64,000 nucleotides of DNA from assembly GCA_016869515.1 (NCBI GenBank), contig VGDZ01000003.1, positions 18,804-82,803 on the forward strand, in the 5' to 3' direction. Position numbers and translations under genes: made by a program. The notes under the pieces are model-generated. The model searched no databases and was not told where the DNA came from. It was given only the letters and a program-made list of their open reading frames with translations. This stretch comes from Alphaproteobacteria bacterium. GTDB taxonomy: Bacteria > Pseudomonadota > Alphaproteobacteria > VGDZ01. Of the stretch, positions 20,172 to 57,039 are shown in pieces (position 1 is the first letter of the stretch; every line of letters starts with the position of its first letter).

Positions 20172-20176
20172 ACGCC

Positions 20177-29688: not shown

Positions 29689-29874
29689 CGGCGCCCTCCC
29701 TTGGCGATCGATCAAGATCGAGCGATGAGTGTCAAAAGCGCGCCTGGGCGAGTCAACCCGATTTTTCCCCATGACTGCCTGGCGAAAATAGGGTTGCCGA
29801 CAGCCGTGCATGTGCCCGTTCCGGGACTAGAATGGACCTCCGGCAACGAGGCCGATCGTCTTCGGGGAACGCAC

Positions 29875-31287
29875 ATGACCGGACCACGGACATTCTTCGA
29901 GAAGGTTTGGAGCGATCACGTCATCGCCGACCTCGGCGACAACACCGCGCTGCTGCAGATCGACCGGCTGTTCCTGCACGAGATGAGCGGCTCGGTGGCG
30001 ATGCGGCAGCTGGCCGAGTCCGGTCGCGAGCCGGCCATGCGCGAGCTGGTGTTCACCGTCATCGACCACGTCATCGACACCGCGCCCGGGCGCGGGCTCG
30101 ACCAGTCGCGCTCCAAGGCCGGCCCCGAGATGATCCGCGCGGCACGCGCGGGGTCGCGCAGATACGGATTCAATTTCGTCGACGTCGACGATCCCCGCCA
30201 GGGCATCGTCCACGTCATATCGCCCGAGCTGGGCGTGGCCTTGCCTGGATTGACCCTGGTTTGCGGCGACAGCCATACCTGCACCGTCGGCGGCGTCGGC
30301 GCGCTGGCCTGGGGCATCGGCTCGACCGAGGGCGAGCACGTGCTGGCGACGCAGACCCTGCCGCAAGTCAGGCCCAAGGCGATGCGGGTCAATTTCGAGG
30401 GCAAGCCGGCGAAGGGGGTCTATCCCAAGGACATGGTGCTGGCGTTGATCGGCAAGATCGGCGCCAATGGCGGCATCGGCTATGCGGTCGAGTTCGCGGG
30501 ATCGGCGATCCGCGAAATGCCGGTCGAGGGGCGGTTGACGATCTGCAACATGGCGATCGAGTTCTCGGCCAAGTACGGCTTCGTCGCGCCCGACGAGATC
30601 ACCATCGACTATCTCAAGGGCCGCGAATATGCGCCCAAGGGTGCGGCTTGGGAGGCGGCGGTGCGCTATTGGCGATCCCTGCCCAGCGATCCCGGCGCGC
30701 GTTTCGAACACGAAGTCACGGTCGACTGCGGCGGGTTGAGCCCGCAGGTCACCTGGGGCACCAGCCCGCAGCAGGTGGTCGGCATCGACGGCCGCGTGCC
30801 CGACCCGGCGTCGGCCGACGATCCCGGCACGCGGACGCTGATCGAACGCGCGGCCGAATACGCCAAGCTCAAGCCCGGCCAGCCGATCCAGGGCGTCAAG
30901 ATCGACGTCGCCTATATCGGCTCCTGCACCAATGCGCGGCTGTCGGATCTGCGCGTGGCGGCGAACGTTCTCAAGGGCAAGCGCATCGCCGGCGGCGTGC
31001 AGGGCATTTGCGTTCCCGGCTCGACCGCGGTCAAGCGTGCGGCCGAGGCCGAGGGTCTCGACCGCGTGTTTCGCGATGCCGGCTTCGAATGGCACGAATC
31101 CGGCTGCGCCATGTGCGGTCACATGGGCAACGACCGGCTGGCGGATTTGCGCGTGATCAGCACCACCAACCGCAATTTCGAGGGTCGCCAGGGGCCGGCC
31201 ACCCGCACCCATCTCGCCAGCCCGGCGACGGTGGCGGCGTCCGCGCTGCGCGGACAGATCGCCGACGTCCGCGGCCTGATCGGCTAG
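29875..31287 (+). CDS. 3-isopropylmalate dehydratase large subunit-like (LeuC, ~470-aa bacterial type)
   Basis: ATG 29875; motifs VCGDSHTCT, IGSCTNARLSD and CAMCGHMG (Fe-S ligands). Confidence 0.85.
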   Translation: MTGPRTFFEKVWSDHVIADLGDNTALLQIDRLFLHEMSGSVAMRQLAESGREPAMRELVFTVIDHVIDTAPGRGLDQSRSKAGPEMIRAARAGSRRYGFNFVDVDDPRQGIVHVISPELGVALPGLTLVCGDSHTCTVGGVGALAWGIGSTEGEHVLATQTLPQVRPKAMRVNFEGKPAKGVYPKDMVLALIGKIGANGGIGYAVEFAGSAIREMPVEGRLTICNMAIEFSAKYGFVAPDEITIDYLKGREYAPKGAAWEAAVRYWRSLPSDPGARFEHEVTVDCGGLSPQVTWGTSPQQVVGIDGRVPDPASADDPGTRTLIERAAEYAKLKPGQPIQGVKIDVAYIGSCTNARLSDLRVAANVLKGKRIAGGVQGICVPGSTAVKRAAEAEGLDRVFRDAGFEWHESGCAMCGHMGNDRLADLRVISTTNRNFEGRQGPATRTHLASPATVAASALRGQIADVRGLIG

Positions 31288-31296
31288 GCGCGCACC

Positions 31297-31944
31297 ATGG
31301 AAAGCCTGGTGCGGATCAAGGGCGTGGCGGCGCCGCTTTTGCGCATCAATGTCGATACCGACCAGATCATCCCGGGGCCCGAGATCATGGCCTCGGTCGA
31401 CGAGAGCTATGCGCGCTGGGGCACCGGCCTGTTCGCTTATTGGCGCTATCTCGACGGCGCCGGTGGGGCGCACACGCCGAATCCCGAGTTCGTCCTCAAC
31501 CGGCCGCCCTATGACCGCGCCGTGATCCTGCTGGCGGACCGCAATTTCGGCTGCGGCTCCTCGCGCGAGCCGGCACCCAAGGCGCTGCGCGGCTTCGGAA
31601 TCCGTGCCGTGATCGCGCCGTCCTTCGGCGGCATCTTCTTCAACAACTGTTTCCGCAACGGGGTCCTGCCGATCGAGCTGTCGATCGAAGCGGTGCGCGA
31701 ACTGGCGGGCCAGGTCGAGCGCTCGCAAGGGCGCGGCGAGATATCTGTCGACCTGGAAGCCCAACGCATCACCGCGCCCGAAGGCGACGGCTACGGCTTC
31801 AGGACGCCGCCCTTGTTGCGACGCATGCTGCTCGAAGGCCTGGACGAGATCGGCGCCACGCTGGCTCGGCGCGGCGAGATCGAAGGTTTTCGCGGTCGAG
31901 ACCGATCGCGACGTCCCTGGGCCTATCGGCCCGGACTGGCTTGA
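31297..31944 (+). CDS. 3-isopropylmalate dehydratase small subunit-like (LeuD), copy 1
   Basis: 215 aa; NFGCGSSRE, APSFGGIFFNNCFRNG. Confidence 0.85.
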   Translation: MESLVRIKGVAAPLLRINVDTDQIIPGPEIMASVDESYARWGTGLFAYWRYLDGAGGAHTPNPEFVLNRPPYDRAVILLADRNFGCGSSREPAPKALRGFGIRAVIAPSFGGIFFNNCFRNGVLPIELSIEAVRELAGQVERSQGRGEISVDLEAQRITAPEGDGYGFRTPPLLRRMLLEGLDEIGATLARRGEIEGFRGRDRSRRPWAYRPGLA

Positions 31945-31955
31945 GAGGTGCCGCC

Positions 31956-32585
31956 ATGGAAAAACTGACCAAGATCTCGGCCATTGCCGCGCCGATGCTG
32001 CGCATCAACATCGACACCGACCAGATCATTCCCGCCCGCTTTTTGGTTCGCGTCACCAATGACGGCCTGGGCGAGGGCCTGTTTGCCGGCCAGCGCTACG
32101 GACGCGACGGCAAACCCAATCCCGACTTCATTCTCAATCGCGCGCCTTACGATCGCGCCGAGATCCTGCTGGCCGACCGCAATTTCGGCTGCGGCTCCTC
32201 GCGCGAGGCGGCGCCGATGGCGCTGCGGCAACGCGGCTTCCGGGCGGTGATCGCGCCCTCCTTCGGCGGCATCTTTTTCAACAATTGCTTTCGCAACGGC
32301 GTCGTTCCGGTCGAGCTGCCGATCGAGGCGGTGCGGCAGATCGCGGCCGAAGTCGAGGCGACGCAGGGCCAGGGCAAGGTCGGCGTCGATCTCGAAGGCG
32401 AGGCCGTGACCACGCCCAGCGGCGCGGTGTTCAAGTTCCGCTCGCCGCCGCTATTGCGCGAAATGCTGTTGGCGGGGGCGGACGAGGTCGATCTGACCCT
32501 GCGCCGCGGCGAACAGATCGGCGACTTTCGCGGCAAGGACTCGGCCAAGCGTCCCTGGGCCTATCGGCCGGGTCTGGCGAACTGA
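31956..32585 (+). CDS. 3-isopropylmalate dehydratase small subunit-like (LeuD), copy 2 (tandem duplicate)
   Basis: ATG 31956 preceded by GAGAGG; near-identical core motifs to copy 1 (NFGCGSSREAAP, APSFGGIFFNNCFRNG). Confidence 0.8.
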   Translation: MEKLTKISAIAAPMLRINIDTDQIIPARFLVRVTNDGLGEGLFAGQRYGRDGKPNPDFILNRAPYDRAEILLADRNFGCGSSREAAPMALRQRGFRAVIAPSFGGIFFNNCFRNGVVPVELPIEAVRQIAAEVEATQGQGKVGVDLEGEAVTTPSGAVFKFRSPPLLREMLLAGADEVDLTLRRGEQIGDFRGKDSAKRPWAYRPGLAN

Positions 32586-32622: not shown

Positions 32623-33852
32623 ATGACCGACGCGCAACGTCTTGCCGCGGGAGTCGATCCGCGCCGCGCGCTCGACTTTCTTGCCGCGATGGTTCGCCAC
32701 AAGAGCTACAGCAATACGCCGGGTGAGACCGAGCTTGCGCGCTTCATGGTGGCGGAAATGCAGAAACTCGGCATGGATGCGCGCCTGCAGCCGGTCGAGG
32801 GCGAGCGCTGCAACGCCATCGGCGTGTGGAAGGGCACGGGCGGCGGCAAGAGCCTGCTGTTCAACGGCCATCTCGATACCAATCCCGTCACCGGCGGCTG
32901 GACGGTCGATCCCTGGGGCGGGTTGGTAGACGACAAATTCATTTACGGCATCGGCGTCTCCAACATGAAGGCGGGCGACGCCGCTTATTTCTGCGCCGTG
33001 CGCAGCTTGATCGAGAACGGCGTTCGGCTGCGCGGCGACGTCGTCCTGACTTATGTTGTCGGCGAGTTGCAGGGCGGGGTTGGCACCATCAAGGCGATCG
33101 AAGCGGGCATTCGTGCCGATTATTTCATCAATGCCGAGCCGACCGACATCGCTGCCCTGACCTTGCACGCCGGCGCGTTCAACTGGACGGTCGAGCTCGA
33201 AGGCGTCACCCGCCACGTCTCCAAACGCGAGCAGGCCTGCGATGCGCTGCAGGCCGCGTCGGTGCTGGTGCCGCGACTGAACGCGCTTGAATTCAGCGGC
33301 GCCGCCAGCGAGGAGCACCGAGCCGTCAACCGCTGCCATGTCGGCGTGATGCGTTCGGCGCTGACGCCGGAATTCCACGATTGGCGCCCGCCGCAGGTAG
33401 CCGATTTCGCGCGACTGATCGGTACCGGTCGCTACGCCCCCAGCCAATCCGAGGACAGCGTCCTGGCCGACATTCGCCGCGAACTTGATTGGTTGCAACG
33501 CGAGTTTCCCGGCCTCAAGGCCAAGGTCGAACGCCAGCGCACCGGCCAGGTACAGCGGGCCTCGATGCTGCCCTTCGAGGTCGACCGATCCAGCCCGATC
33601 GTGCAGGCGATCAACGCCGCCCATCGGGCCGTCCGCCGAACGCCGCAGCCGACCGGTGCGATCGCGCCGCAATGCTATTACGGCACCGATGCCGCGCACC
33701 TGCAGCATCGCGCCGGAATGCAAGGCATCGTCTGCGGCCCGGGCGGCCGTTACAACACCATGCCCGACGAACGTGTGGACATTGTCGACTATCTCGACGC
33801 CGCCAAGATCTATCTCTTGACCGTGCTCGACATCTGCGGCCGGTCCGCCTAG
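32623..33852 (+). CDS. M20-family metallopeptidase / deacylase (ArgE/DapE/ACY1-like)
   Basis: 409 aa; metal-binding motifs NGHLDT, GVSNMKAG, and C-terminal YGTDAAHL. Confidence 0.8.
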   Translation: MTDAQRLAAGVDPRRALDFLAAMVRHKSYSNTPGETELARFMVAEMQKLGMDARLQPVEGERCNAIGVWKGTGGGKSLLFNGHLDTNPVTGGWTVDPWGGLVDDKFIYGIGVSNMKAGDAAYFCAVRSLIENGVRLRGDVVLTYVVGELQGGVGTIKAIEAGIRADYFINAEPTDIAALTLHAGAFNWTVELEGVTRHVSKREQACDALQAASVLVPRLNALEFSGAASEEHRAVNRCHVGVMRSALTPEFHDWRPPQVADFARLIGTGRYAPSQSEDSVLADIRRELDWLQREFPGLKAKVERQRTGQVQRASMLPFEVDRSSPIVQAINAAHRAVRRTPQPTGAIAPQCYYGTDAAHLQHRAGMQGIVCGPGGRYNTMPDERVDIVDYLDAAKIYLLTVLDICGRSA

Positions 33853-33915
33853 ACCGCGATTCACGGTTTGCATGGAATCGCCGACGCTGTTCCATGCAAA
33901 CCGTGAATCGCGGTC
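33852..33915. terminator. Perfect 26-bp-stem / 12-nt-loop hairpin immediately after the M20 peptidase stop codon (terminator or protein-binding palindrome)
   Basis: gaccgcgattcacggtttgcatggaa-tcgccgacgctg-ttccatgcaaaccgtgaatcgcggtc read directly; no U-tract follows. Confidence 0.55.
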
Positions 33916-33942
33916 CAGGGCGGGATCCGAGGGCATGAGTCA

Positions 33943-33978
33943 CGCTCGGTCTCGAACCATGGGGTTCTAGACCGAGCG
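33943..33978. promoter_or_regulatory. 16-bp near-perfect inverted repeat containing GAACC-N4-GGTTC, 22 bp upstream of the GntR start: candidate autoregulatory operator
   Basis: cgctcggtctcgaacc-atgg-ggttctagaccgagcg with one mismatch. Confidence 0.45.
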
Positions 33979-33999: not shown

Positions 34000-34761
34000 A
34001 TGGCGCGAGTTGGAAAACCGCGCGGCTCGAGCCGGCGCGACCACTTCGGCGATGCGGTCTACGCCCAGATCAAGGCCGACATCTTCGACTTTCGCCTGCT
34101 GCCCGGCGCCCGCTTCTCGGAAAACGAGGTCGCCCGGCGGGCGCGCGTTTCGCGCACGCCGGTGCGCGAGGCACTGATGCGGCTCGAGCGGGAGGGCTAT
34201 CTTCAGGTCCACGCCAAGAGCGGTTGGAGCGTCTGCCCGCTCGATTTCGCGCAGTTCGACCACCTCTACGACCTGCGCGTCGTGCTCGAACTGGCGGCGG
34301 TGCAGAAGCTGTGCGCCGGCAAGGACATCGCCGCCCTCGATCGGCTGCGTGCGATCTGGCTGGTGAGTCCGTCCCTGCGCGTGGTCGACGGCGCCAAGCT
34401 GGCCCGGATGGACGAGGAGTTCCACTCGACCCTGGTCGCCGCCGCCGGCAATCCCGAAGTCGCGCGCATCCATCACGGCATTACCGAGCGCATCCGCATC
34501 CTGCGGCGGCTCGACTTCACTCATCCCGAACGCATCATCTACACCTATCGCGAACACGCCGAGATCCTGCGCGCGCTGCTGGCGCGCGACGCCGATCGCG
34601 CCTCGGCTTTGTTGCGCGCGCATATCGAGGCCAGCCGGGCGGTGGTGCAGACCATCACCCTGCACCGGCTGCACCTTGCGCATCTCGATGCCAAACCGTC
34701 TGCCAGGACCAACGGGGCCGCACGCAAGCCGGCCGCCGCGCGTGCCCCTCGCCGGCGCTAG
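34000..34761 (+). CDS. GntR-family transcriptional regulator (FadR/FCD subfamily)
   Basis: N-terminal wHTH (EVARRARVSRTPVREAL) and helical FCD-type C-terminal domain. Confidence 0.85.
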   Translation: MARVGKPRGSSRRDHFGDAVYAQIKADIFDFRLLPGARFSENEVARRARVSRTPVREALMRLEREGYLQVHAKSGWSVCPLDFAQFDHLYDLRVVLELAAVQKLCAGKDIAALDRLRAIWLVSPSLRVVDGAKLARMDEEFHSTLVAAAGNPEVARIHHGITERIRILRRLDFTHPERIIYTYREHAEILRALLARDADRASALLRAHIEASRAVVQTITLHRLHLAHLDAKPSARTNGAARKPAAARAPRRR

Positions 34762-34783
34762 GGCATGATCCGCAACCCGCCTT

Positions 34784-34849
34784 GAACCGCGCGGTTCACG
34801 GCCGATCGCCAATGTCCTGGGCCGCGATCGGTCCCGAACCTTGCGGTTC
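34784..34849. promoter_or_regulatory. Two further GAACC-N4-GGTTC palindromes (34784..34797 gaaccgcgcggttc; 34836..34849 gaaccttgcggttc) upstream of the NCS2 permease gene
   Basis: Read directly; same half-sites as the motif upstream of the GntR gene. Confidence 0.45.
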
Positions 34850-34876
34850 AAGACCGATCGATCCCGCCCCTGCCGA

Positions 34877-36229
34877 CTACTCTTCCTTGGGGAAGACCAG
34901 GTTCAGCCCCATCGCCAGCATGATGCCCATGACGATGCCGTCGGTGACGAGGATGCGCAGCGCCTGCGGGATGGCGTCGAACGCCCCCGGCGGCGCCGCC
35001 TGAATCCCCAAGCCCAGCCCCAGCGAGGCGGCCAGGATCAAGGCGTCGCGGCGCGAGGTCATGTTGCGGCCGATGATGTCGATGCCGACCGAGGCCACCA
35101 TCCCGAACATGAACAGCAGCACGCCGCCCAGCACCGCGTTCGGCATCAGGGCGATGATCGCTCCCACCTTCGGCACCAGCGCCATCAGGATCAGGAAGAA
35201 GCCGCCGAAGGCGACGACGAAGCGGCTGCCGACGCCGGTCAGCGAGATGACGCCGATGTTCTGCGAATAGGACGTCAATGCCATGCCGCCGAACAGGGCC
35301 GACAGCGTCGAGCCGATGCCGTCATTCGAGACCGCGCCGCGGATGCGCCAGCCTTCGGCCGGAACGCCGCAGATGCGCGATACCGCCAGGGTATGGCCGG
35401 TGGTCTCGACCGCGGTGGCGAAGAAGCACACCACCACCGCAATGATGCCGACGATGCCCGGCCATTCCAGGCCGCCATAGGGAAACGGCATCGGCACCGC
35501 GATCCAGTCGGCCTTGCCGACCGCGCTGATGTCGATCAGGCCGGCCGCGGCGGCGACGAGATAGCCGATGATCATGGTCACGAACAGCGACAGCGCGCGC
35601 ACGAACCCCTTGGCAAAGCGGCTGATGACCAGGATCAACACGATCATCAGCGCCGCCAGGCCGATGGTCAGCGGCTTGCCGAAGGCGGGCGTGCCGAAAC
35701 CCGAGGCGACGTTGATGCCGATCTTCATCAGACCGGTGCCGATCAGCAGGATGGTGGTGCCGGTGACGATCGGCGGGAAGAAGCGATGCAGTCTGCCGAT
35801 CAGCGGACTCCAGGCGAACTGCACCAGGCCGCCGATCATCAGCGCCGTCATCGCCGCCGCCAGGCTTACGTCCTTGGCGATGGCGACCATGGGGCCGATG
35901 AAGATGTAGAACACGCCCATCACGATCGGCAGGCGCGGCCCGATGAAGGACATGCCCAGCGCCGAAATCATGGTGGCGACGCCGCAGCCGATCATGGTGC
36001 CCGAGACCATCAGGATGCGGGTCTCTTCGGACAGGTTGAGCAGCCGCCCGACGATCAGCGGTCCGCCGACCATGGCGGTGAACATCACCAGCACGTGCTG
36101 AATGCCGAACAGCGCGGTCTTGACCGGCCCGGGATAGTCGTTCAGCTCGTAGTCGAGCTTGACGAAACCGCGATCGCCCCCGTGTCCGCCATGCGCTTGC
36201 GCGGCGGCTGCGTTTTCTTGGCTGCTCAT
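34877..36229 (-). CDS. Nucleobase:cation symporter-2 (NCS2) family purine/xanthine/uric-acid-type permease
   Basis: 450 aa with about 12-14 TM segments; NCS2-like glycine-rich TM composition. Confidence 0.8.
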   Translation of the reverse strand: MSSQENAAAAQAHGGHGGDRGFVKLDYELNDYPGPVKTALFGIQHVLVMFTAMVGGPLIVGRLLNLSEETRILMVSGTMIGCGVATMISALGMSFIGPRLPIVMGVFYIFIGPMVAIAKDVSLAAAMTALMIGGLVQFAWSPLIGRLHRFFPPIVTGTTILLIGTGLMKIGINVASGFGTPAFGKPLTIGLAALMIVLILVISRFAKGFVRALSLFVTMIIGYLVAAAAGLIDISAVGKADWIAVPMPFPYGGLEWPGIVGIIAVVVCFFATAVETTGHTLAVSRICGVPAEGWRIRGAVSNDGIGSTLSALFGGMALTSYSQNIGVISLTGVGSRFVVAFGGFFLILMALVPKVGAIIALMPNAVLGGVLLFMFGMVASVGIDIIGRNMTSRRDALILAASLGLGLGIQAAPPGAFDAIPQALRILVTDGIVMGIMLAMGLNLVFPKEE

Positions 36230-38055
36230 GGTTTATCCTTCCCTTCCTTGACGAAATTGCGCCAGCTGCCGAGATTCGAAATATCCCACGCCGCGCGCAC
36301 GGCGTGGGCCTCGCACAAGAACCCTTTGACCTGGGTGCCGTCTTCCAGCGCCACCGTTCCGATGCCCAGCGGCGCCGGAATGCCGTCGACGAAGCCGCCG
36401 AAGCCGGCGGCCGGCACCTCCCACACCTCGACCTCGATCGACGCGCCGGACTCGGCGCGCACCAGGCCCGGTCGCGGCGGCGAGAACTCGGTCAAGGCGT
36501 AGAAGCGATAGAGCGGCGCCGTCCGGCATTTGCGCGCCAGCCGCCCGCCGCGCTCGGTCAGCTGGTGGTTGAGCGGCAGCCCCGACATGTGCGCTCCGCA
36601 CACCGCGACCTGGATGGTGGCGTTCGCCTTGGCCGGCGCGGCCAGCGTCGCCGGTCGCCCCGACGGCAAGGCCGTTCCGGTCGCGCCCATGGTGCCGCCC
36701 GCCGCCCGCTGCAGCGCGTCGGCCAGGACGCACAGCGATTCGTCGGCGAAGGCCGGGGCGATCAGGGTGATGCCGAAAGGCAGCCCGTCGGCTTGAAAGC
36801 CCGCCGGCAGCGCGATCGCCGACAGGTCGAGCAGGTTCATGAAATTGGTGTAGTGGCCAAGATTGCTGTTGGTGCGGATCGGATCGGCTTCGACCTCGGA
36901 GATCCGGTAGATGGTTCCCGCGGTCGGCGTCACCAGGATGTCGAATTCGTCCCAGACCGGCGCGGTCTCCCGCCGCAGCGCCTTCAAGCGATCGAACGCG
37001 GCGAACGCATCGACCGCGGTGAAGCGCGTCGCCCCGCCGATGATCTTCCGCGTCACCGGGTGCAGCGCCTCGGGCCGTTTTTCGATGAAGTCGCGGATGG
37101 CGACATAGCGCTCGGCTACCCAAGGCCCTTCGTAAAGCAGCCGCGCGGTGGCGAAGAACGGCGCAAAATCCACCTCCGCCCTCTCGGCCCCGAGCGCATC
37201 CAGTCGCGCCATCGCCTGTTCGAACAGGCCGGCGGCGTCGCGGTTGCCGAAGAACTCCAATTGATTCTTGCGCGGCACGCCGATGCGGAGACCTGCGAAC
37301 GCGATCGGCACAGCCCCATGGCCAGCGCCTCGATCCGGGCGCGAATAGGGGTCGGCAGCATCGAACCCGCGCGCCACCCGCAACACCGACGCCGCGTCGG
37401 CCGCGGTCAAGGCGAAGATCGACACGCAATCGAGCGACCGGCAGGCCGGCACGACCCCACGCGTGCTAAGCAGCCCGCAGCTGGGCTTGAGTCCGATCAG
37501 GTTGTTGAACGCCGCCGGCACTCGACCGGAGCCGGCGGTGTCGGTGCCGAGCGCGAAGCTGGCAAGCCCGGCGGCGACCGCGATCGCCGAGCCCGAGCTG
37601 GAACCGCCCGGGACATAGTCCGCATCGAAGCTGTTGGCGGGCACGCCATAGGGCGACCGCACGCCGACCAGGCCGGTGGCGAACTGGTCGAGATTGGTCT
37701 TGCCGATGGGGATCGCCCCCGCCGCCACCAGTTTTTCGACCACCGGCGCCGAGCCGCCCGCGAGGTAGCGGAAATCCGGGCAGCCGGCGGTGGTGGGGTG
37801 CCCGGCGAGGTCGATGTTGTCCTTGATCGCGAAAGGGATGCCGTAGAGCGGCAGACCGTCCGGCCCGCGGCGCTCGAGTGCCGCAGCCTGGGCCCGCAAG
37901 GCGTCGTCGGCCAGGCGGTGGATCCAGACCTTGTCGTCGCCGCGCCTGGACAGCCGCCGCAGCAATCCCTCGACCATCTGGCTTGGACGCAGCGCCCCGG
38001 CCCGATACCGCGCGCCGAGCGTATCCAGGTCGAGCGAGTCCCCCTCATCCAGCAT
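36226..38055 (-). CDS. Allophanate hydrolase-like protein (amidase-signature domain plus C-terminal AtzF-type domain)
   Basis: Start at MLDEGDSLDL (ATG 38055) because the track start at 38112 is a TTG inside the upstream palindromic region; amidase-signature stretch GGSSSGSAIAVAAGLASFALGTDTAGSGRVPAAFNNLIGLKPS; about 600 aa as expected for allophanate hydrolase. Confidence 0.8.
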   Translation of the reverse strand: MLDEGDSLDLDTLGARYRAGALRPSQMVEGLLRRLSRRGDDKVWIHRLADDALRAQAAALERRGPDGLPLYGIPFAIKDNIDLAGHPTTAGCPDFRYLAGGSAPVVEKLVAAGAIPIGKTNLDQFATGLVGVRSPYGVPANSFDADYVPGGSSSGSAIAVAAGLASFALGTDTAGSGRVPAAFNNLIGLKPSCGLLSTRGVVPACRSLDCVSIFALTAADAASVLRVARGFDAADPYSRPDRGAGHGAVPIAFAGLRIGVPRKNQLEFFGNRDAAGLFEQAMARLDALGAERAEVDFAPFFATARLLYEGPWVAERYVAIRDFIEKRPEALHPVTRKIIGGATRFTAVDAFAAFDRLKALRRETAPVWDEFDILVTPTAGTIYRISEVEADPIRTNSNLGHYTNFMNLLDLSAIALPAGFQADGLPFGITLIAPAFADESLCVLADALQRAAGGTMGATGTALPSGRPATLAAPAKANATIQVAVCGAHMSGLPLNHQLTERGGRLARKCRTAPLYRFYALTEFSPPRPGLVRAESGASIEVEVWEVPAAGFGGFVDGIPAPLGIGTVALEDGTQVKGFLCEAHAVRAAWDISNLGSWRNFVKEGKDKP

Positions 38056-38093
38056 CGATTGGCCCTTGGCGAAGTTCCCTGATCCGGCACTAG

Positions 38094-38124
38094 TATACAA
38101 CATGGTATACAAAGCAACCTATAC
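38094..38124. promoter_or_regulatory. Low-GC divergent promoter region with repeated GTATAC-type GntR-like boxes between the allophanate hydrolase and fdrA genes
   Basis: tagtatacaacatggtatacaaagcaacctatacagatat: GTATAC at 38094 and 38105, CTATAC at 38119. Confidence 0.4.
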
Positions 38125-38154
38125 AGATATTGGGACCGGTGCTAGAGTTTGTTC

Positions 38155-39693
38155 ATGGTGAGCGCGACCCGGATCTTCCCCAACCTCTACCGCGACTCCA
38201 TCTCCCTGATGCAACTATCGGCCGTGCTGGCGGCGCGGCCGGGCATCGACAACGTCTCGGCGGTGATGGCGACGCCGGCCAATTTGGCGCTGCTGGCCGA
38301 GGCGGGATTGGCGCCGGGCCGCGTCGCCGCCGGACCCAACGACCTGCTGATCGTCGCCCGCGGCAAGGACTCGGCGGCGGTAACGGCGGCGCTCGATGCC
38401 GCCGCCGCCGAGATCGCCAGGCCGACCGTTGCCGCCGCCGGCGTCGCTGGTCCGAGTCTGCCGCGCAGCCTGCGCTCCGCCCGGCTGCAGGTTCCGGCCG
38501 CCAATCTGGCGCTGGTTTCGACCCCGGGCGAATACGCCGCCGCCGAGGCGATGAAGGCGTTGCGCCTGGGCCTCAACGTCATGCTGTTCAGCGACAACGT
38601 GGATCTCGACGACGAGGTCGCGCTCAAGCGCCTGGCCAAGGCGCGCGGGCTGATGGTGATGGGGCCCGATTGCGGCACCGCCATCGTCAACGGCGTTCCG
38701 CTCGGCTTCGCCAATGCGGTGCGACGCGGCGCGATCGGCGTGGTCGGCGCCTCGGGCACCGGCACCCAGCAGGTGACTTGCCTGGTGCACCGGCTCGGCG
38801 CCGGCATTTCCCACGCCATCGGCACCGGCGGCCACGACCTCAGCCGCCGGGTGGGCGGCATCACCATGGTGCAGGGCATCCGGGCGCTGGCTGCCGACCA
38901 GGCGACCAAGGTCATCGTGCTGATCTCCAAGCCACCGGCGCCGGAGGTGGCGCGGGCCGTGCTCAAGGCGGCCAGAAACTGCGGCAAGCCGGTGGTGGTG
39001 AACTTCATCGGCGCCGCGCCGGACAGCGTGCGCGGCCAGAATCTGCATGTCGCCGCTACCCTCGATCACGCGGCCCGCGTCGCCGTCGCCCTGGCGCAAG
39101 GAGGCGCGCCGCCCGGCCCCGATCTCGGGCAGCTGCCGCCGGTGCGTCTCGGCCCCATGGCCGCCGGCCAAAGATACGTTCGCGGCCTCTATAGCGGCGG
39201 CACCTTCTGCTACGAGGCATCCGCCATGCTGGGCGCTGCGCTGGGGACGGTCTGGTCCAATGCGCCGGTCGATCCCAGGCGGCGGCTGGGCGATGCCCGC
39301 AAGTCGAAGGGCCATACCCTGATCGACCTCGGCGACGACGCATTCACCCGCGGCCACCCGCATCCGATGATCGACTTCCGCCTGCGCAACGAACGCCTCT
39401 TGCGCGAGGCCGAGGATGCGGAAGTGGCGGCGATCGTGCTCGACGTGGTGCTGGGCTTCGGTGCCCACCCCGATCCGGCGGCCGAACTGGCGCCGGTGAT
39501 CGAAAAGGCGCGGGCGACCGTGCGCCGACGGGGTCGCGAGATCGCCGTGGTCGGCTTCGTTTGCGGGACCGAACTTGACCCGCAAGGTTTGGACCGCCAG
39601 GCAAATGCGCTGCGTTCCGCCGGCATGATCCTGACCGAAAGCAATGCGCAGGCGGCGCGGCTGGCTGCGTCGATTGCAGGAGGGCGCCGATGA
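38155..39693 (+). CDS. fdrA: FdrA-family protein (CoA-binding/succinyl-CoA-synthetase-like; oxamate carbamoyltransferase-associated)
   Basis: About 510 aa with FdrA-like architecture (N-terminal domain plus CoA-ligase-like repeats, GPDCGTAIVNG, VGASGTGTQ); ATG 38155, track start TTG at 38149. Confidence 0.75.
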   Translation: MVSATRIFPNLYRDSISLMQLSAVLAARPGIDNVSAVMATPANLALLAEAGLAPGRVAAGPNDLLIVARGKDSAAVTAALDAAAAEIARPTVAAAGVAGPSLPRSLRSARLQVPAANLALVSTPGEYAAAEAMKALRLGLNVMLFSDNVDLDDEVALKRLAKARGLMVMGPDCGTAIVNGVPLGFANAVRRGAIGVVGASGTGTQQVTCLVHRLGAGISHAIGTGGHDLSRRVGGITMVQGIRALAADQATKVIVLISKPPAPEVARAVLKAARNCGKPVVVNFIGAAPDSVRGQNLHVAATLDHAARVAVALAQGGAPPGPDLGQLPPVRLGPMAAGQRYVRGLYSGGTFCYEASAMLGAALGTVWSNAPVDPRRRLGDARKSKGHTLIDLGDDAFTRGHPHPMIDFRLRNERLLREAEDAEVAAIVLDVVLGFGAHPDPAAELAPVIEKARATVRRRGREIAVVGFVCGTELDPQGLDRQANALRSAGMILTESNAQAARLAASIAGGRR

Positions 39694-41096
39694 ATCCGCT
39701 GCTCTCGGCGCCGCTGTCGGTGCTCAATGTCGGCGTCGGTTCCTTCGCCGACGCCATCGCGTCCCAAGGCGGCACGGCGACGCGAATCGATTGGACCCCG
39801 CCCGCGCAGGGCGATCGGGCCGCCGGCATGGCGCTTGCCCGCTTGGTCAACCATCCCAGGATCGAGGCCGCCAACGCCAAGGCCTATCGAAAGCTTGTGG
39901 CGGCGCAGCCGCGGCTGATCGGAATCGGCGTCGCCGGCAAGACCTTGCCGGGCATAGGCCGGCGCATGATCCTGCACGCCGGGCCGCCGATCGCATGGGC
40001 GCGCATGTGCGGCCCGATGCAGGGCGCCATCATCGGCGCCATCCTGTTCGAGGGCTGGGCGACCAGCGCCGCCAAGGCGCGGGCGCTGGCGGCCAGCGGC
40101 AAGATCGGCTTCGCGCCTTGTCATCATCACGGCGCGGTCGGCCCAATGGCCGGCATCATCAGCCCCTCGATGCCGGTGTGGGCGATCGAGAACGCCGCCG
40201 GCGGCAACCGCACCTACAGCAATCTCAACGAGGGCCTGGGCAAGGTGCTGCGCTTCGGCGCCAACGGCGCCGAAGTGATCGAGCGCTTGCGCTGGATGAG
40301 GACCGTCCTGGCGCCGACCCTGCAGGCCGGCCTCGCGCGCCTCGGTCCGGTCGAACTCAAGCCGCTGATGGCCCAGGCCCTGCACATGGGCGACGAAGTG
40401 CACAACCGCAACGCCGCCGCGACCTCGCTGCTGATCAAGAAGCTGGCGCCGGCGCTGCTCAAGAGCGGCGCGGCATCGGCCGACATCGCCGCCACCATCG
40501 AGTTCATGGCCGGGACCGACCACTTCTTTCTCAACCTGTCGATGGCGGCCTGCAAGGCGATGCTCGACGCCGCGCACGGCGTGCCCTACAGCAGCCTGGT
40601 GACGACCATGGCGCGCAACGGCGTCGATTTCGGGATCCGCGTCGGCGGGCTGGGCCGCCGCTGGTTCACGGCGCCGGCGCCGGTAGTCGACGGACTCTAT
40701 TTCGCCGGCTACGCGATGGCCGACGCCGCCGCCGATCTCGGCGACAGCGCCATCACCGAGACCGCCGGCATCGGCGGCTTCGCCATGGCGGCGGCGCCGG
40801 CGATCGTCAAGTTCGTCGGCGGCACCGCCGCCGATGCCTTGGCCAACACCGTGGCGATGACCCACATCACCCTCGGGCGCAACAACGCCTTCACCCTGCC
40901 GGCGCTGGATTTCGCCGGCACGCCTTGCGGCATCGATGCGCGGCTTGTGGTCGACACCGGCATCCTGCCGGTGATCAACACCGGCATCGCCCACAAGGCG
41001 CCGGGCGTGGGCCAGATCGGTGCCGGCGTCACCCGCGCCCCGCTTGCCTGCTTCACGCAGGCCGTGACGGCGCTGGCAGCCGCGGTCAAGGGCTAG
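39690..41096 (+). CDS. DUF1116-family protein (YlbE-like)
   Basis: ATG overlapping the fdrA stop (ATGA); 468 aa; gene order fdrA-DUF1116-carbamate kinase as in enterobacterial fdrA-ylbE-ylbF-arcC clusters. Confidence 0.7.
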   Translation: MNPLLSAPLSVLNVGVGSFADAIASQGGTATRIDWTPPAQGDRAAGMALARLVNHPRIEAANAKAYRKLVAAQPRLIGIGVAGKTLPGIGRRMILHAGPPIAWARMCGPMQGAIIGAILFEGWATSAAKARALAASGKIGFAPCHHHGAVGPMAGIISPSMPVWAIENAAGGNRTYSNLNEGLGKVLRFGANGAEVIERLRWMRTVLAPTLQAGLARLGPVELKPLMAQALHMGDEVHNRNAAATSLLIKKLAPALLKSGAASADIAATIEFMAGTDHFFLNLSMAACKAMLDAAHGVPYSSLVTTMARNGVDFGIRVGGLGRRWFTAPAPVVDGLYFAGYAMADAAADLGDSAITETAGIGGFAMAAAPAIVKFVGGTAADALANTVAMTHITLGRNNAFTLPALDFAGTPCGIDARLVVDTGILPVINTGIAHKAPGVGQIGAGVTRAPLACFTQAVTALAAAVKG

Positions 41097-41103
41097 CGCC
41101 GTC

Positions 41104-42051
41104 ATGTCGGCGCGCGGTCTGGCGGTGCTGGCGATCGGCGGCAATGCCTTGATCCGCGATCGCCAGCACGAATCGATTCCCGATCAGTCCCGCATGGTCG
41201 AAGCCATCGCCGTCGACATCGCCGACATGATCGTCGAGGGATGGAACGTGGTGGTCACCCACGGCAACGGCCCTCAGGTCGGCTTCATTTTGCGGCGTTC
41301 GGAAATCTCGATCGACGAAGTGCCGCCGGTGCCGATGGACTACGCCGGCGCCGACATCCAGGGCGCGGTCGGTTGGATGTTCGTGCGGGCCTTGCGCAAC
41401 GAATTCCGCCGCCGCGGCATGGCGCGCGAGGCGGTGGCGGTGGTGACGCAGACCGTGGTCGATCGTGCCGATCCGGCCTTCGCCGCGCCGACCAAGCCGA
41501 TCGGTTCGCACATGGACGAAAGCAAGGCCAAGCTCCTTGCTGGCAAGTACGGCTGGACGGTGCGCGAGGATGCCGGGCGCGGCTGGCGGCGGGTGGTGCC
41601 CTCGCCGCGGCCGATCGCCATCGTCGAGGCTGCCGTCATTCGCGACTTGGTCCGGGCCGGCTACGTGGTGGTGGCCTGCGGCGGCGGCGGCATCCCGGTG
41701 GTCAAGGAAGACAACGGCGATCTGCGCGGCGTCGAGGCGGTGATCGACAAGGATCTCGCCTCCAGCCTGCTGGCGCGCAACCTGGGTGCCGACGCGTTGG
41801 TGCTGCCGACCGGCGTCGAGAAAGTCGCGCTCGACTTCAACAAGCCGACCCAGCGCTGGATCGATCGCATGACCCTGGCCGAAGCCAGGCGCCATGCGGC
41901 CGAAGATCAGTTCGACAAGGGCAGCATGGGACCCAAGGTCGCCGCCCTGATCGATTTCGTCGGCGGCGGCGGCAAGCTCGGCCTGATCACCAATCCGCCC
42001 AACCTGCCGCGCGCCTTGCGCGGCGAAACCGGAACCCGCATCGTCGCGTAG
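41104..42051 (+). CDS. arcC: Carbamate kinase
   Basis: Motifs IGGNAL, VTHGNGPQVG, VVACGGGGIPV; 315 aa. Confidence 0.85.
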   Translation: MSARGLAVLAIGGNALIRDRQHESIPDQSRMVEAIAVDIADMIVEGWNVVVTHGNGPQVGFILRRSEISIDEVPPVPMDYAGADIQGAVGWMFVRALRNEFRRRGMAREAVAVVTQTVVDRADPAFAAPTKPIGSHMDESKAKLLAGKYGWTVREDAGRGWRRVVPSPRPIAIVEAAVIRDLVRAGYVVVACGGGGIPVVKEDNGDLRGVEAVIDKDLASSLLARNLGADALVLPTGVEKVALDFNKPTQRWIDRMTLAEARRHAAEDQFDKGSMGPKVAALIDFVGGGGKLGLITNPPNLPRALRGETGTRIVA

Positions 42052-42233: not shown

Positions 42234-43790
42234 TTATTTGCGGTAGGTCCGACCTTTGGGGCCGAGCTGCTCGGGCAAGATGCGATAGGCATCCTCGACC
42301 CAATCGCAAAGCCGTGCGCGGGTTTCGCGCGGATCGATGATGTCGGGCACGCGAAAGCGCTCGGCGGTCAGGAAGGGCGAGGCCAAGTGCTCGTATTTGG
42401 CGTCGAACTCGATCAGGCGCTGCGCGCGCTCCTCGGGCGACAGGCCATCGAGTTCGCGCCGATAGGCGGCGGCGATGCCGCCCTCGAACGGGATCGAACC
42501 CCAGCGCCCCGATGGCCAAGCATAGTGCAAGTTGATGCCCTGCATTCGGGCATAGGCGGTGCCGGCCAGACCGAACAGCCGGCGAATGACGATGGCGCAC
42601 CACGGCACCTTGCTCTGCTCGATCGCCGAGACCACGCGCACCGAGCCGCGGACATTGCCTTGGCGCTCACCCTCGATTCCCACCACCGTGCCGGGCTGAT
42701 CGACGAAATTGACGATCGGCAGATGGAAGGTGTCGCAGAAGTCGACGAAGGTCTCCATTTTCTCGGCCGCCGGGCGATTGAGCCCGCCGCCGAACTTGTA
42801 GGGATCGTTGGCGATGACGCCGACCGGGTAGCCGTCGAGCCGCGCCAGGCAGGTAACCACCGAGCCGCCGAAATTGGGCGTCATCTCGAACACCGAGTCC
42901 CGGTCCATCACCAGTTCGACGATGCGGCGGACCTTGTAGACCTGCCGGCGATCGCGCGGAATGATCGACAGCAGCGCTTCCTCGGCGCGATTGGGGTCGT
43001 CCCCCGATTGCCTGCGCGGCGGCATTTGAAATACCGAATCCGGCACATAGGACAGCCAGCGCCGAATCAGGGCGAAGGCGTGCTCCTCGCTCTCGGCCTC
43101 GTTGTCGATCACGCCCGATTGCCGGGTGTGAAGCGCGGAGCCGCCCAACGCCTCCTTGTCCGGACGCGAGCCCATGCCGCGCTCGACCACCGGCGGCCCG
43201 CCCGCCATGACCTGGCTGGTGCCCTTGACCATGACCGAAAAATGCGCGCAGGCCGCTTTTAGCGCTCCCAGTCCGGCGCAGGGTCCCATGGCGATGGCGG
43301 CGACCGGGATGTAGCCCAGCAAGCCGACCATCTGCCAGGTCGGATAGCCCGGAATCTTGGTCGAGCCCTGCTGCTCGACCAGCCGCACCGAGCCGCCGGC
43401 ACTTTCGACCAGCCGGATCAGCGGCATGCGATGCTCGAAGGCGTAGTTTTCCGAGTAGATCCATTTCTCCGACACCGTCGCCTCGGACGAACCGCCGCGC
43501 ACGGTGAAATCGTCGGCGTCGATCGAGACCTTGCGGCCGTCCAGCCTGGCGGTGCCGATGATGGTGTTGGAGGGACGCACCGCGACCAGCCGATGATTCT
43601 TGTCGTATTCGGCCTTTCCCGCCAGCATGCCGAGTTCCCGCCAGCTGCCCTTGTCGACCAGCCGGTCGATCCGCTCGCGGGCCGTCAGGCGGCCTTCGGC
43701 GTGCTGCCGCTCGATTCCCTCCTTGCCGCCCAGTTCCAACGCGAAGGCACGCCGCCGCTTCAGTTCCTCGACCTCAGGCCCCCAACTCAT
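42234..43790 (-). CDS. Acyl-CoA carboxylase carboxyltransferase subunit (propionyl-CoA carboxylase beta / methylmalonyl-CoA carboxyltransferase 12S-like), paralog 1
   Basis: Start at MSWGPEVEEL (Met 162 of the track ORF); two crotonase-like CT domains (GGSxE, GPCAGLGA, IANDPYKFGG). Confidence 0.85.
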   Translation of the reverse strand: MSWGPEVEELKRRRAFALELGGKEGIERQHAEGRLTARERIDRLVDKGSWRELGMLAGKAEYDKNHRLVAVRPSNTIIGTARLDGRKVSIDADDFTVRGGSSEATVSEKWIYSENYAFEHRMPLIRLVESAGGSVRLVEQQGSTKIPGYPTWQMVGLLGYIPVAAIAMGPCAGLGALKAACAHFSVMVKGTSQVMAGGPPVVERGMGSRPDKEALGGSALHTRQSGVIDNEAESEEHAFALIRRWLSYVPDSVFQMPPRRQSGDDPNRAEEALLSIIPRDRRQVYKVRRIVELVMDRDSVFEMTPNFGGSVVTCLARLDGYPVGVIANDPYKFGGGLNRPAAEKMETFVDFCDTFHLPIVNFVDQPGTVVGIEGERQGNVRGSVRVVSAIEQSKVPWCAIVIRRLFGLAGTAYARMQGINLHYAWPSGRWGSIPFEGGIAAAYRRELDGLSPEERAQRLIEFDAKYEHLASPFLTAERFRVPDIIDPRETRARLCDWVEDAYRILPEQLGPKGRTYRK

Positions 43791-43922: not shown

Positions 43923-45458
43923 ATGGCATTCGAGAAGCACATCGCCGAGCACGCGCAGCGCCTGGCCAAGGTCAAGGCCATGGGAGGACCGGCCAAGCTC
44001 AAGCGGCTCTCGGACCAGGGACTGCTCAACGCGCGACAGCGGGTCGACTACCTGTTCGATCCCGGCAGTTTCCTGGAGGTCGGAGAATTCGCGGTCTCGG
44101 ATCGCGCCGACGCCAAGGACGACACCCCGGCCGACGGCAAGGTCACCGGCTATGGCCGCATCGACGGCCGCGAGGCGGCGGTGGTGTCGCACGACATCAC
44201 CGTCAAGAGCGCCTCGTCCTCGCCGATCAATGTCCGCAAGATGGCGCATATGCGCCGCGTCTCGCAAAGCCAAGGCATCCCCTTGGTGCTCCTGAACGAA
44301 AGCTCAGGCGCGCGAATTCCCGACACCATGGGCGCGATCGGCACCGGCACGCTTGGCCAGGACCCGTCGCAGTTCGTGCGCTTCCGCGAGAACCCCTATG
44401 TCTCGGCGGTGCTGGGCCCGGCCTTCGGCACCGCCTGCTGGTTCTCGATGCTGTCGGATTTCGTGGTGATGCGGAAGGGCGCGCAGCTGGCGATCTCCAG
44501 CCCGCGGGTGACGTCGATCGCCATCAACCAGCACATCGATCCCGAGGAACTGGCCGGCGCGCGCATGCACCAAGAGGTCACCGGCAAGGTCGATTTCGTG
44601 GTCGATTCCGACCAGGCCGCGATCGACATGGTCAAACGTTTCCTGTCCTACCTTCCCAGCCACCACAACGAATTGCCGCCGGTGGCGGCGGTTCCGGCCG
44701 GTTCGGACGACGCCGCGCGCGGCCTGCTCGACATCGTTCCCGAGGATCGAGCCAAGGTCTACGACGTCCGCAAGGTGATTGCCGCCATCGCCGACACCGG
44801 CAGCGTGCTGCCGCTGAAGGAGAAGTTCGCCCGCACCGCGGTCACTGCGCTCGGGCGCATCGAAGGGCAGACGGTCGGCTTCGTCGCCTCCAATCCGCTG
44901 ATCAAGGCCGGCTCGCTGGATGCCGATTCCTGCGACAAGATCACCACCTTCCTGGTGCTGTGCGATTCCTTCAACATCCCGATCGTCCTGCTGGTCGATA
45001 CCCCGGGGTTCCTGATCGGGGTCGAGGGCGAGCGCAAGAAGGCGCCCGGCCGGGTGATGAACTTCATGGCCGCGCTGCAGATGTGCACGGTGCCCAAGTT
45101 CTCGATCGTCATGCGCAAGAGCTACGGCCAGGCCTATCTCAACATGGGCGGAACGCGCAACACCGACGAGATGCTGGCCTGGTACTGCGCCGATGTCGGC
45201 TTCATGGATCCCAATGTCGGCGTCAACGTGGTCTATGGCGTGACGCGCGAGAAGGAGCCCGAGCGCTTCCAGCAACTGGTCGACGAGATCCGCCGCGGCT
45301 CCGGCCCCTACGACCTGGCGTCGATCTTCGCCGCGCAGAAGGTGATCGATCCGCGCGAAAGCCGCTCGGTGCTGGCGCGCCTGCTGCAGGTCCATCGCAA
45401 GCGCCCCAGCCGCGGCATTGGCAAGCACCATCTGGGCAATTGGCCCACGACCTTCTAG
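43923..45458 (+). CDS. Acyl-CoA carboxylase carboxyltransferase subunit, paralog 2 (divergently transcribed)
   Basis: 511 aa; same two-domain CT architecture as paralog 1 (ITVKSASS, GPAFGTACWFS, VASNPLIKAGSLD). Confidence 0.85.
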   Translation: MAFEKHIAEHAQRLAKVKAMGGPAKLKRLSDQGLLNARQRVDYLFDPGSFLEVGEFAVSDRADAKDDTPADGKVTGYGRIDGREAAVVSHDITVKSASSSPINVRKMAHMRRVSQSQGIPLVLLNESSGARIPDTMGAIGTGTLGQDPSQFVRFRENPYVSAVLGPAFGTACWFSMLSDFVVMRKGAQLAISSPRVTSIAINQHIDPEELAGARMHQEVTGKVDFVVDSDQAAIDMVKRFLSYLPSHHNELPPVAAVPAGSDDAARGLLDIVPEDRAKVYDVRKVIAAIADTGSVLPLKEKFARTAVTALGRIEGQTVGFVASNPLIKAGSLDADSCDKITTFLVLCDSFNIPIVLLVDTPGFLIGVEGERKKAPGRVMNFMAALQMCTVPKFSIVMRKSYGQAYLNMGGTRNTDEMLAWYCADVGFMDPNVGVNVVYGVTREKEPERFQQLVDEIRRGSGPYDLASIFAAQKVIDPRESRSVLARLLQVHRKRPSRGIGKHHLGNWPTTF

Positions 45459-45492
45459 TGGTTTCCGGTCAACCGACAAGTGGAGCGAAAAC

Positions 45493-45714
45493 GTGGCCGT
45501 CGAAAAAGTAAAATCCGAGATCACCGGCAAGGTCTGGAAGCTGATCGCCAAGCCCGGCCAGAAACTGGCCGAAGAAGAGACCATCATCCTGATCGAATCG
45601 ATGAAGATGGAAATCCCGGTGATGGCGCCCGCCGCCTGCACGCTCAAGCGCGTTCTGGTCGGCGAGGGCGACGATGTGGCCGAGGGCCAGGATCTGGCGG
45701 AGATCGAGCTTTGA
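45493..45714 (+). CDS. Small biotin carboxyl-carrier / biotinyl-domain protein (~73 aa)
   Basis: GTG 45493 preceded by a GGAG ribosome-binding site; biotinylation motif IESMKMEIPV. Confidence 0.7.
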   Translation: MAVEKVKSEITGKVWKLIAKPGQKLAEEETIILIESMKMEIPVMAPAACTLKRVLVGEGDDVAEGQDLAEIEL

Positions 45715-45787
45715 CCGGTTCGCGCCGCCGCCGTTTCCGCCCGCCGTGCTAGGCTCCGGTACGATGCCGGCTGCGGGGAATAGTGGC

Positions 45788-56842: not shown

Positions 56843-57039
56843 CGACCCGGCAGGCACACGAACCCCTTGTACGAACGTTGTTATTTGAATTTGGATTATA
56901 ACACACAGAAATCTGATCAGAAAATGCTTTATTTACGAATGTCGTTCTGTTATAGGCCATTTTATGAATAACCAGGTGGCGCCGCTCAACGCCAAAAAAG
57001 CTGAACGGAACCGCGGAACCGACTGGGAGCAAGTTCGCA

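Follow-up and report, generated by a model that had tools for sequence, protein, structure and literature searches.

An AllF-AllG-carbamate kinase cassette without AllH, divergent from an allophanate hydrolase operon: a candidate ATP-yielding ureide pathway in an alphaproteobacterium

The allFGH genes of Escherichia coli encode oxamic transcarbamylase (OXTCase), and allK encodes a catabolic carbamate kinase (Kim & Kim 2022, 2024; PMC9843812, PMC11326118). OXTCase was tied to genes only in 2024, and it is known from one organism, with one substrate and in a three-subunit composition. Deletion of allF or allG abolished oxamate formation, a ΔallH mutant retained about 7% of it (1.2 versus 17.7 mM), allFG alone restored 7%, and AllH was apparently substoichiometric in the purified complex (PMC11326118). 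In comammox Nitrospira and archaeal metagenome-assembled genomes (MAGs), allFGHK are co-located with biuH, atzF, and trtA; these clusters include AllH and biuH and are read there as two adjacent pathways, one for biuret and one for oxalurate, and no link to cyanuric acid hydrolase is reported for them (PMC12625717). Cyanuric acid mineralization proceeds from AtzD through AtzEG/AtzH to AtzF in Pseudomonas sp. ADP and from AtzD/TrzD through BiuH to AtzF in Rhizobium and Herbaspirillum; the cyanurate and biuret pathways described so far all work by hydrolysis only, yield no ATP, and contain neither FdrA/AllG nor a carbamate kinase (PMC6219798, PMC5806882). Here, we analyze a stretch of 64,000 nucleotides (the window, whose numbering we use throughout) from an Alphaproteobacteria MAG. 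At positions 34000-42051, it carries a cassette in which homologs of AllF (FdrA), AllG (DUF1116), and carbamate kinase stand next to an allophanate hydrolase and an NCS2 permease, without AllH (DUF2877, PF11392). The cassette raises the question of whether OXTCase-type enzymes give an ATP-conserving route for cyanurate and biuret nitrogen.

Genes were called from an open reading frame (ORF) listing together with Pfam and NCBIfam scans, and E. coli K-12 proteins served as the reference for identities. The cassette consists of six genes, encoding a GntR/FCD regulator, an NCS2 permease, an allophanate hydrolase, FdrA/AllF, AllG, and a carbamate kinase, and the window proteins are 100% identical to MAG proteins MBM3567419-425. 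A preliminary description made from the sequence alone had placed all six genes correctly. It had also reported an ATGA overlap between fdrA and the DUF1116 gene, which we verified by reading the sequence. The genes form two divergent operons, NCS2-allophanate hydrolase and allF-allG-arcC, with a common control region. The start codon of the NCS2 gene overlaps the allophanate hydrolase stop codon by 4 nt, and the carbamate kinase gene begins 7 nt 3' of allG.

The order allF-allG-...-carbamate kinase is that of the E. coli genes (fdrA-ylbE-ylbF-ybcF), and the products are homologous: FdrA is 40.7% identical to E. coli FdrA over 499 aa, with a match to PDB 3DMY at an E value of 1e-88; AllG is 50.5% identical to YlbE, with a match to PDB 3CLQ at 2e-128; and the carbamate kinase is 37% identical to AllK/YbcF. 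The AllG identity and the PF06545 match confirm that the DUF1116 protein is related to YlbE. The presumed chemistry, in which a carbamoyl group passes to phosphate and ATP is then formed, would be shared as well. The cassette differs from the E. coli system in that it has no AllH and no allantoin genes (allB/C/D/E) nearby, is divergently coupled to an allophanate hydrolase and an NCS2 permease, and has a GntR/FCD regulator, whereas the E. coli genes are under AllS/AllR/ArcA control. Compared with the comammox and archaeal clusters, the locus likewise combines OXTCase-type genes and carbamate kinase with a hydrolase of the biuret/allophanate series and a GntR regulator; however, AllH and biuH are absent here, and the allophanate hydrolase shares its control region with allF (PMC12625717).

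With moderate confidence, we read this locus as a self-contained cassette under one regulator that provides an ATP-yielding lower pathway for cyanurate-, biuret-, or allophanate-type ureides and is built on an AllF-AllG core without AllH. The permease would import a nitrogen-rich ureide or its ring precursor. AllF and AllG would then move the terminal carbamoyl group of an N-acyl-urea onto phosphate by phosphorolysis, carbamate kinase would convert carbamoyl phosphate and ADP to ATP, NH3, and CO2, and the allophanate hydrolase would mineralize the leftover ureido-carboxylate, allophanate. One example of such a scheme is 1-carboxybiuret + Pi -> carbamoyl phosphate + allophanate. This scheme would account for the coregulation of the allophanate hydrolase with AllFG and for the association with nucleobase-type permeases. 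The gene neighborhoods of the subfamily suggest that the substrate belongs to the series from cyanuric acid through 1-carboxybiuret/biuret to allophanate; allantoin-derived oxalurate is less likely. AllF and AllG most likely form a working core alone, because the cassette has spread and been kept without AllH, because AllH has repeatedly been lost in situ, and because the E. coli enzyme has residual activity without it. A more specific proposal is possible but doubtful: AllF-AllG would be a two-subunit N-carbamoyl phosphorylase that acts without AllH on ring-opened products of cyanuric acid, together with carbamate kinase it would form a previously unrecognized ATP-conserving branch of s-triazine/biuret mineralization, widespread from Firmicutes to Proteobacteria, and the NCS2 protein would be a cyanurate-type importer. 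Its substrates would possibly be 1-carboxybiuret and/or allophanate, and perhaps biuret.

The absence of AllH was examined throughout the window, that is, 64 kb of a 96-kb contig from an incomplete MAG. The best tblastn match of E. coli YlbF had an E value of 0.59. With nine AllH proteins of related loci as queries, the best tblastn E value was 0.035, and the matches were scattered without clustering. An iterated profile hidden Markov model (HMM) of 59 sequences gave no match at E<=10 among six-frame ORFs of at least 70 aa. The NCBI annotation numbers the cassette genes consecutively, with nothing extra between them. A frameshifted DUF2877 gene adjacent to the cluster was also considered and ruled out: the 1.9 kb 3' of arcC is occupied by a carboxyltransferase gene on the minus strand. 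Thus, the preliminary observation that the cluster has no DUF2877 gene holds for the window as a whole.

We compared the locus with 80 loci from GTDB genomes and with contigs found by exact protein look-up, which together gave 85 nonredundant loci (L numbers below), and took relationships from a tree of AllG. In this tree, the window is sister to a tight clade, L005-L009 (78 to 80% AllG identity to the window), in which a full allophanate hydrolase is always divergent from fdrA. The same six-gene cassette, with the regulator gene convergent to <NCS2 <allophanate hydrolase and these divergent from FdrA> AllG> carbamate kinase>, is present in at least five other contigs (L006, L089, L091, the P0109 contigs, and L092). 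AllH is absent within ±10 kb of the cassette in L006, L089, L091, and the P0109 contigs; in L092, the gene set is the same but the flank is truncated. The DNA that flanks the cassette is unrelated between loci, with transposase genes in some. The joining of an allF-allG-arcC relative to an allophanate hydrolase and an NCS2 permease, as first described for the window, is therefore conserved in several contigs and is not an accident of one genome.

AllH lies directly upstream of the GntR gene in L005, L009, the outgroup L010, and the P0130 contig. Because these sister loci have AllH at that position, the AllH-less state is derived, and it has been stably maintained. Throughout the relatives, AllH is upstream of fdrA or of the GntR gene, so that the preliminary expectation of a missing gene between DUF1116 and arcC looked in the wrong place. 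It can also lie several kb from fdrA (for example, in L005, L010, L058, and L071). Among the loci with at least 5 kb on both sides in the first 82 analyzed (n=53), AllH was present in 43 and absent from 10. Within one subclade, L012 has AllH and L014 does not. In Caballeronia sp. J97 (L052, 8096-8284), a 63-residue C-terminal relic of AllH (E value of 4e-9) remains between a BiuH-like gene and fdrA, and in Caballeronia temeraria (L054) and L055 there is no trace of AllH at that place; FdrA, AllG, and carbamate kinase are intact. No named AllH is listed for C. temeraria or Caballeronia sp. J97, with the limit that "MULTISPECIES" entries could mask one. The relic in L052 and the empty sites in L054 and L055 indicate that AllH was lost independently, in situ, in Caballeronia. 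Several truncated AllH proteins (160 to 210 aa) occur among Caballeronia-type metagenome matches, and AllH seems prone to decay in this lineage. An apparent isochorismatase-AllH fusion (P0275) was considered as a physical link between the two families and rejected, as it is a 377-aa relic beside flagellar genes.

The partners of the family point to its substrate class. Homologs of AllA, AllC, AllD, AllE, and Gcl were not found with phmmer and the E. coli proteins in the window or in the 80 related loci, and AllB-type (allantoinase/amidohydrolase) matches were confined to L069 and L070. Because allA/C/D/E are missing from the related loci, the context that supplies oxalurate in E. coli is missing too. 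We found instead that 41 of the 85 loci encode an isochorismatase-family hydrolase whose best match is the biuret amidohydrolase model NF050097 (270 to 287 bits, below the cutoff of 370). A full allophanate hydrolase is present in 16 of the 85, and a 137-aa protein consisting of AH_C only lies directly 3' of carbamate kinase in 25. Cyanuric acid hydrolase genes are present in 7 of the 85 loci, in distant lineages (Flavonifractor porci, a Desulfovibrionaceae MAG, Huaxiibacter chinensis, three Betaproteobacteria lineages, and L091, whose AllG is 80% identical to that of the window), which span Firmicutes, Desulfovibrionaceae, Enterobacteriaceae, and Betaproteobacteria. The three of these seven that were scored (L035, L056, and L074) are at equivalog level (NF052395, 452 to 580 bits; cutoff, 360). 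Huaxiibacter has, on one strand, genes for a membrane protein, AtzD, NCS2, AllH, FdrA, AllG, and carbamate kinase in that order. An NCS2 gene adjoins the cyanuric acid hydrolase gene in L056; in L074, one membrane protein gene stands between the two. The AtzD-linked loci are scattered over the AllG tree, and thus the association with AtzD belongs to the whole family rather than to one branch.

In all, at least one gene of the cyanurate/biuret/allophanate series is present in 57 of the 85 loci and in 52 of the 65 in which carbamate kinase lies immediately 3'. The preliminary description had proposed a variant ureide, oxalurate, or allophanate pathway within the frame of anaerobic allantoin/oxalurate catabolism. 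Its link to allophanate-type chemistry extends across the whole AllG subfamily, and the variant ureide/allophanate part of the proposal stands; its suggestion of a different subunit composition is possibly right as well. Oxalurate and allantoin as the upstream pathway are not supported, given that allA/C/D/E are missing near the 80 relatives and that the recurrent partners are cyanuric acid hydrolase, BiuH-like hydrolase, allophanate hydrolase, and AH_C proteins. In the searchable literature library, we found nothing that links cyanuric acid hydrolase with FdrA, DUF1116, or carbamate kinase, nor any AllH-less form.

The allophanate hydrolase of the window itself resembles those of the cyanuric acid pathways. 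It is at equivalog level (TIGR02713, 797 bits against a cutoff of 511; NF006043, 858 bits), its AH_C domain is complete (positions 1-122 of 123 of the PF21986 model), and the GGSSSGS and AIKDN motifs, which carry the Ser-cisSer-Lys motifs of the amidase signature, are kept. Relatives of the cassette adjoin AtzD-equivalog and BiuH-like genes. The window differs from these pathways in having neither AtzD nor BiuH.

Several other gene contexts are found in the family. A polytopic membrane protein of about 415 aa without a Pfam match adjoins cyanuric acid hydrolase in four AllFG(H) loci of different phyla (L010, 6988-8403; L056, 1325-2578; L060, 1387-2643; L074, 4830-6113) and may be a transporter for this acid or a related compound. 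Another membrane protein family, of about 515 aa and without a Pfam or NCBIfam match, accompanies BiuH-like/AllFGH clusters in L005 (2152-3699) and 23 other loci, sometimes in tandem copies; its similarity to NCS2 is suggestive at most (hhalign probability 43%, E value of 2.5e-4). In two Betaproteobacteria MAGs (L027 and L035, about 1100-14000), FdrA-AllG occur with neither carbamate kinase nor AllH; the genes that surround them encode hydantoinase A/B-like proteins, a cyanuric acid hydrolase at AtzD-equivalog level, an ABC transporter, and an amidase resembling AtzE. The window, too, has genes of these hydantoinase A/B-like families, at 56968-60824. Halanaerobiales loci L058, L071, L078, and L083 (about 2800-17000) carry a complete Na+-translocating biotin decarboxylase (carboxyltransferase, OAD gamma, biotin carrier, and OAD beta) between AllH and FdrA. 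ORF scans of L071 and L078 show carbamate kinase and a three-subunit enzyme of the xanthine dehydrogenase family further along the cluster, and a PucR regulator in L078; within the flanks of L058, there is no carbamate kinase match. The Halanaerobiales loci are a different, also uncharacterized AllFGH context.

We next consider regulation. FadR-type GntR regulators bind operators with a GT-N-AC palindromic consensus. The gap between the allophanate hydrolase gene and allF contains two such boxes in tandem, 12 bp apart, and a degenerate third, and elsewhere in the window there is only one single-mismatch site, at 6565 (3 matches versus 0.19 expected). Paired GTATAC boxes, also 12 bp apart, are found at the same place in L006, L089, L091, L092, L016, and L019. 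In L005, L007, and L009, one GTATAC box is followed 12 bp downstream by a GTGTAC half-site, and L008, L010, and L012-L014 have a single box. We infer that the GTATAC boxes are operators of the adjacent GntR/FCD protein, acting as a repressor. Their tandem position in the allophanate hydrolase-fdrA gap ties both operons to this regulator, and the two operons are thus predicted to form one regulon.

Some observations weigh against our reading of the cassette as an AllH-less pathway for cyanurate-type ureides. The only AllFG(H) substrate shown biochemically is oxalurate/oxamate, in E. coli, where AllH is needed for about 93% of the flux (PMC11326118). If allophanate were a substrate of AllFG, the allophanate hydrolase would compete with it. 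An HMM of four AtzD-type proteins found no cyanuric acid hydrolase (AtzD/TrzD, PF09663) in the window (E<=1). There is no BiuH-like gene in the window either, its sole isochorismatase-family gene (17573-18319) having no NCBIfam match at E<=1e-10. Since both are absent, the source of the substrate is not local. A Pfam/NCBIfam scan that covered about 13.8 to 60.8 kb found no local allophanate-producing partner (urea carboxylase, BiuH, or AtzE/H); two carboxyltransferases near the cassette are of the PF01039 acyl-CoA type. AllH may be encoded elsewhere in the incomplete MAG. A look-up of AllH accessions, confined to the best 120 matches of the nearest AllH, showed none from the MBM35 block among the NCBI-sourced members, which is a weak negative.

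One alternative, which we consider unlikely, is that the locus belongs to a canonical three-subunit OXTCase acting on oxalurate, with AllH elsewhere in the genome and with the allophanate hydrolase and permease as neighbors that have a separate job. The identities of AllG and FdrA to the E. coli subunits, the E. coli requirement for AllH, the incompleteness of the MAG, and the distance of several kb between AllH and fdrA in some relatives would all fit. However, at least five further copies of the cassette, set in unrelated flanks, have no AllH within ±10 kb, AllH was deleted in situ in Caballeronia with the rest of the operon intact, and none of the 80 relatives has the oxalurate-forming genes. 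The missing accession adds weak evidence in the same direction. In addition, the allophanate hydrolase gene shares a conserved, operator-bearing control region with allF and is therefore not a casual neighbor. Oxalurate might also be used by AllF-AllG as a two-subunit enzyme, a somewhat less probable arrangement in which oxalurate would be imported or would form abiotically from urate or parabanate and the amidase would hydrolyze oxamate or oxalurate, so that both nitrogens are freed. Oxalurate is allophanate extended by one carbonyl, the homology to the E. coli enzyme is consistent with such a substrate, and full release of the nitrogen would account for the coupling of an amidase to AllFG and carbamate kinase. 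Yet the score of the amidase exceeds the allophanate hydrolase equivalog cutoff by a wide margin, its AH_C domain, specific for N-carboxycarbamate, is retained, and the recurrent cyanuric acid hydrolase and BiuH-like partners would be left unexplained.

It is very unlikely that FdrA-AllG is an acyl-CoA synthetase-type enzyme that acts on an organic acid without carbamoyl transfer, as in older annotation. FdrA does have CoA_binding and Ligase_CoA domains and resembles succinyl-CoA synthetase alpha. It shares these folds and a His-containing loop, G[RK]PHPMI, with the succinyl-CoA synthetase/ATP-citrate lyase alpha superfamily; its partner, however, is AllG (DUF1116, PDB 3CLQ) and not an ATP-grasp beta subunit. 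The purified E. coli complex is an OXTCase (PMC11326118), and the frequent carbamate kinase gene immediately 3' (65 of 85 loci) also argues against this function. The least probable explanation is that the cassette is a decaying, nonfunctional remnant of an allFGHK operon after loss of AllH and the BiuH-like gene. It is true that AllH, the BiuH-like hydrolase, and the 515-aa transporter of sister locus L005 all have no counterpart in the window. However, all six ORFs are full length and free of frameshifts, the same reduced cassette recurs in several genomes, and the operators are conserved. Comparison with relatives gave dN/dS ratios of 0.20 to 0.30 for the regulator, 0.12 to 0.15 for the permease, 0.14 to 0.20 for the allophanate hydrolase, 0.18 to 0.24 for FdrA, 0.16 to 0.21 for AllG, and 0.12 to 0.17 for carbamate kinase. 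Such low values in all six genes (0.12 to 0.24, apart from the upper end for the regulator) are those of purifying selection and in effect rule out decay.

Table 1. Features of the cassette, its control region, and the downstream gene set (window coordinates).
Feature	Position	Strand	Evidence or remark
GntR-family regulator with FCD effector domain, 253 aa	34000..34761	+	PF00392 58.7 bits, PF07729 74.5 bits
Long hairpin, putative bidirectional terminator between convergent GntR and NCS2 genes	34774..34859	.	putative function
NCS2 nucleobase:cation symporter-type permease, 450 aa	34877..36229	-	PF00860 254 bits
Allophanate hydrolase, 609 aa from ATG at 38055; amidase-signature and AH_C domains	36226..38055	-	PF01425 305 bits, PF21986 165 bits
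Divergent control region between allophanate hydrolase gene and allF, 99 bp	38056..38154	.	tandem GntR/FadR-type boxes
GntR/FadR-type box TAGTATACAA	38091-38100		allophanate hydrolase/allF gap; read from sequence
GntR/FadR-type box TGGTATACAA	38103-38112		allophanate hydrolase/allF gap; 12 bp from TAGTATACAA
Degenerate third box CCTATACAGA	38118-38127		allophanate hydrolase/allF gap; read from sequence
FdrA/AllF homolog, 512 aa; succinyl-CoA-synthetase-alpha-like subunit of OXTCase	38155..39693	+	NF004760 513 bits (cutoff 433)
AllG (DUF1116), 468 aa	39690..41096	+	PF06545 329 bits
Carbamate kinase, 315 aa	41104..42051	+	NF009007 373 bits (cutoff 266), TIGR00746 352 bits
Carboxyltransferase	42237-43760	-	PF01039; directly 3' of carbamate kinase
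Carboxyltransferase, divergent from the 42237-43760 gene	43923-45458	+	PF01039
Biotinyl carrier, 73 aa	~45490-45715	+	
Further coordinates of the downstream set	45674-46525; 46525-48120	+; -	set also holds a second GntR/FCD regulator and an ADP-forming acyl-CoA-synthetase-like pair

Some properties of the individual genes deserve mention (Table 1). The regulator is 72 to 75% identical to the same-position regulators of L005 and L006, and the permease is 88 to 90% identical to the copies in these loci. Against the pbuX model TIGR03173, the permease scores 380 bits, under the cutoff of 414. The border between fdrA and allG differs from that in E. coli: the first ~50 residues of AllG (39690-39845) are homologous to the last ~50 of E. 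coli FdrA (pairwise E value of 1e-7). The long form of AllG (~468 aa) occurs throughout the 80 related loci, and the E. coli boundary is thus about 50 codons further downstream. This shift implies that the segment of about 50 residues sits at the AllF-AllG interface. At residues ~400-410 of FdrA, the loop G[R/K]PHPMI is kept in 69 of 79 related FdrA ORFs; the window protein reads GHPHPMI and is the sole one in the set with His at that position.

Against Rfam, the region showed no riboswitch or other RNA family, including the guanidine and other riboswitches associated with allophanate hydrolase. The hairpin between the GntR and NCS2 genes matched only generic hairpin (miRNA) models, on both strands and below threshold. 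A megablast comparison of the region with plasmids gave short partial matches covering 5 to 13% of the query; among the matches listed, most lie in the allophanate hydrolase gene and one (Embleya) lies in allG.

Two strong inverted repeats separate an M20 peptidase gene from the GntR gene at the cassette's left edge. The one at 33848-33919 has 30-nt arms that are 97% complementary and a 12-nt loop and is not repeated elsewhere in the window; the one at 33943-33978 has 16-nt arms. They are probably terminators or an insulating element. Further upstream, genes for two large subunits of the aconitase family and, in tandem, for two Aconitase_C small subunits (19625-21436, 28612-31284, 31288-31941, and 31941-32585) are interspersed with peptide/polyamine-type ABC transporters. 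The isochorismatase-family gene that lies upstream, named above, is not BiuH-like. The gene set downstream of carbamate kinase contains no biotin carboxylase and is thus transcarboxylase- or decarboxylase-like. The Na+-decarboxylase of the Halanaerobiales loci prompted us to consider the carboxyltransferase genes as part of the module; this was rejected, as close relatives do not conserve them and a separate GntR regulator accompanies them.

If our reading of the cassette is confirmed, the catalytic core of the OXTCase family may be AllF-AllG alone. The main ecological role of the family may then be the breakdown of cyanuric acid, biuret, and allophanate, with ATP recovered through carbamoyl phosphate. 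This would change genome annotation for the degradation of s-triazine herbicides, the pool-chlorine stabilizer, and urea-fertilizer by-products, and it would explain how anaerobes could gain energy from cyanurate- and biuret-type compounds.

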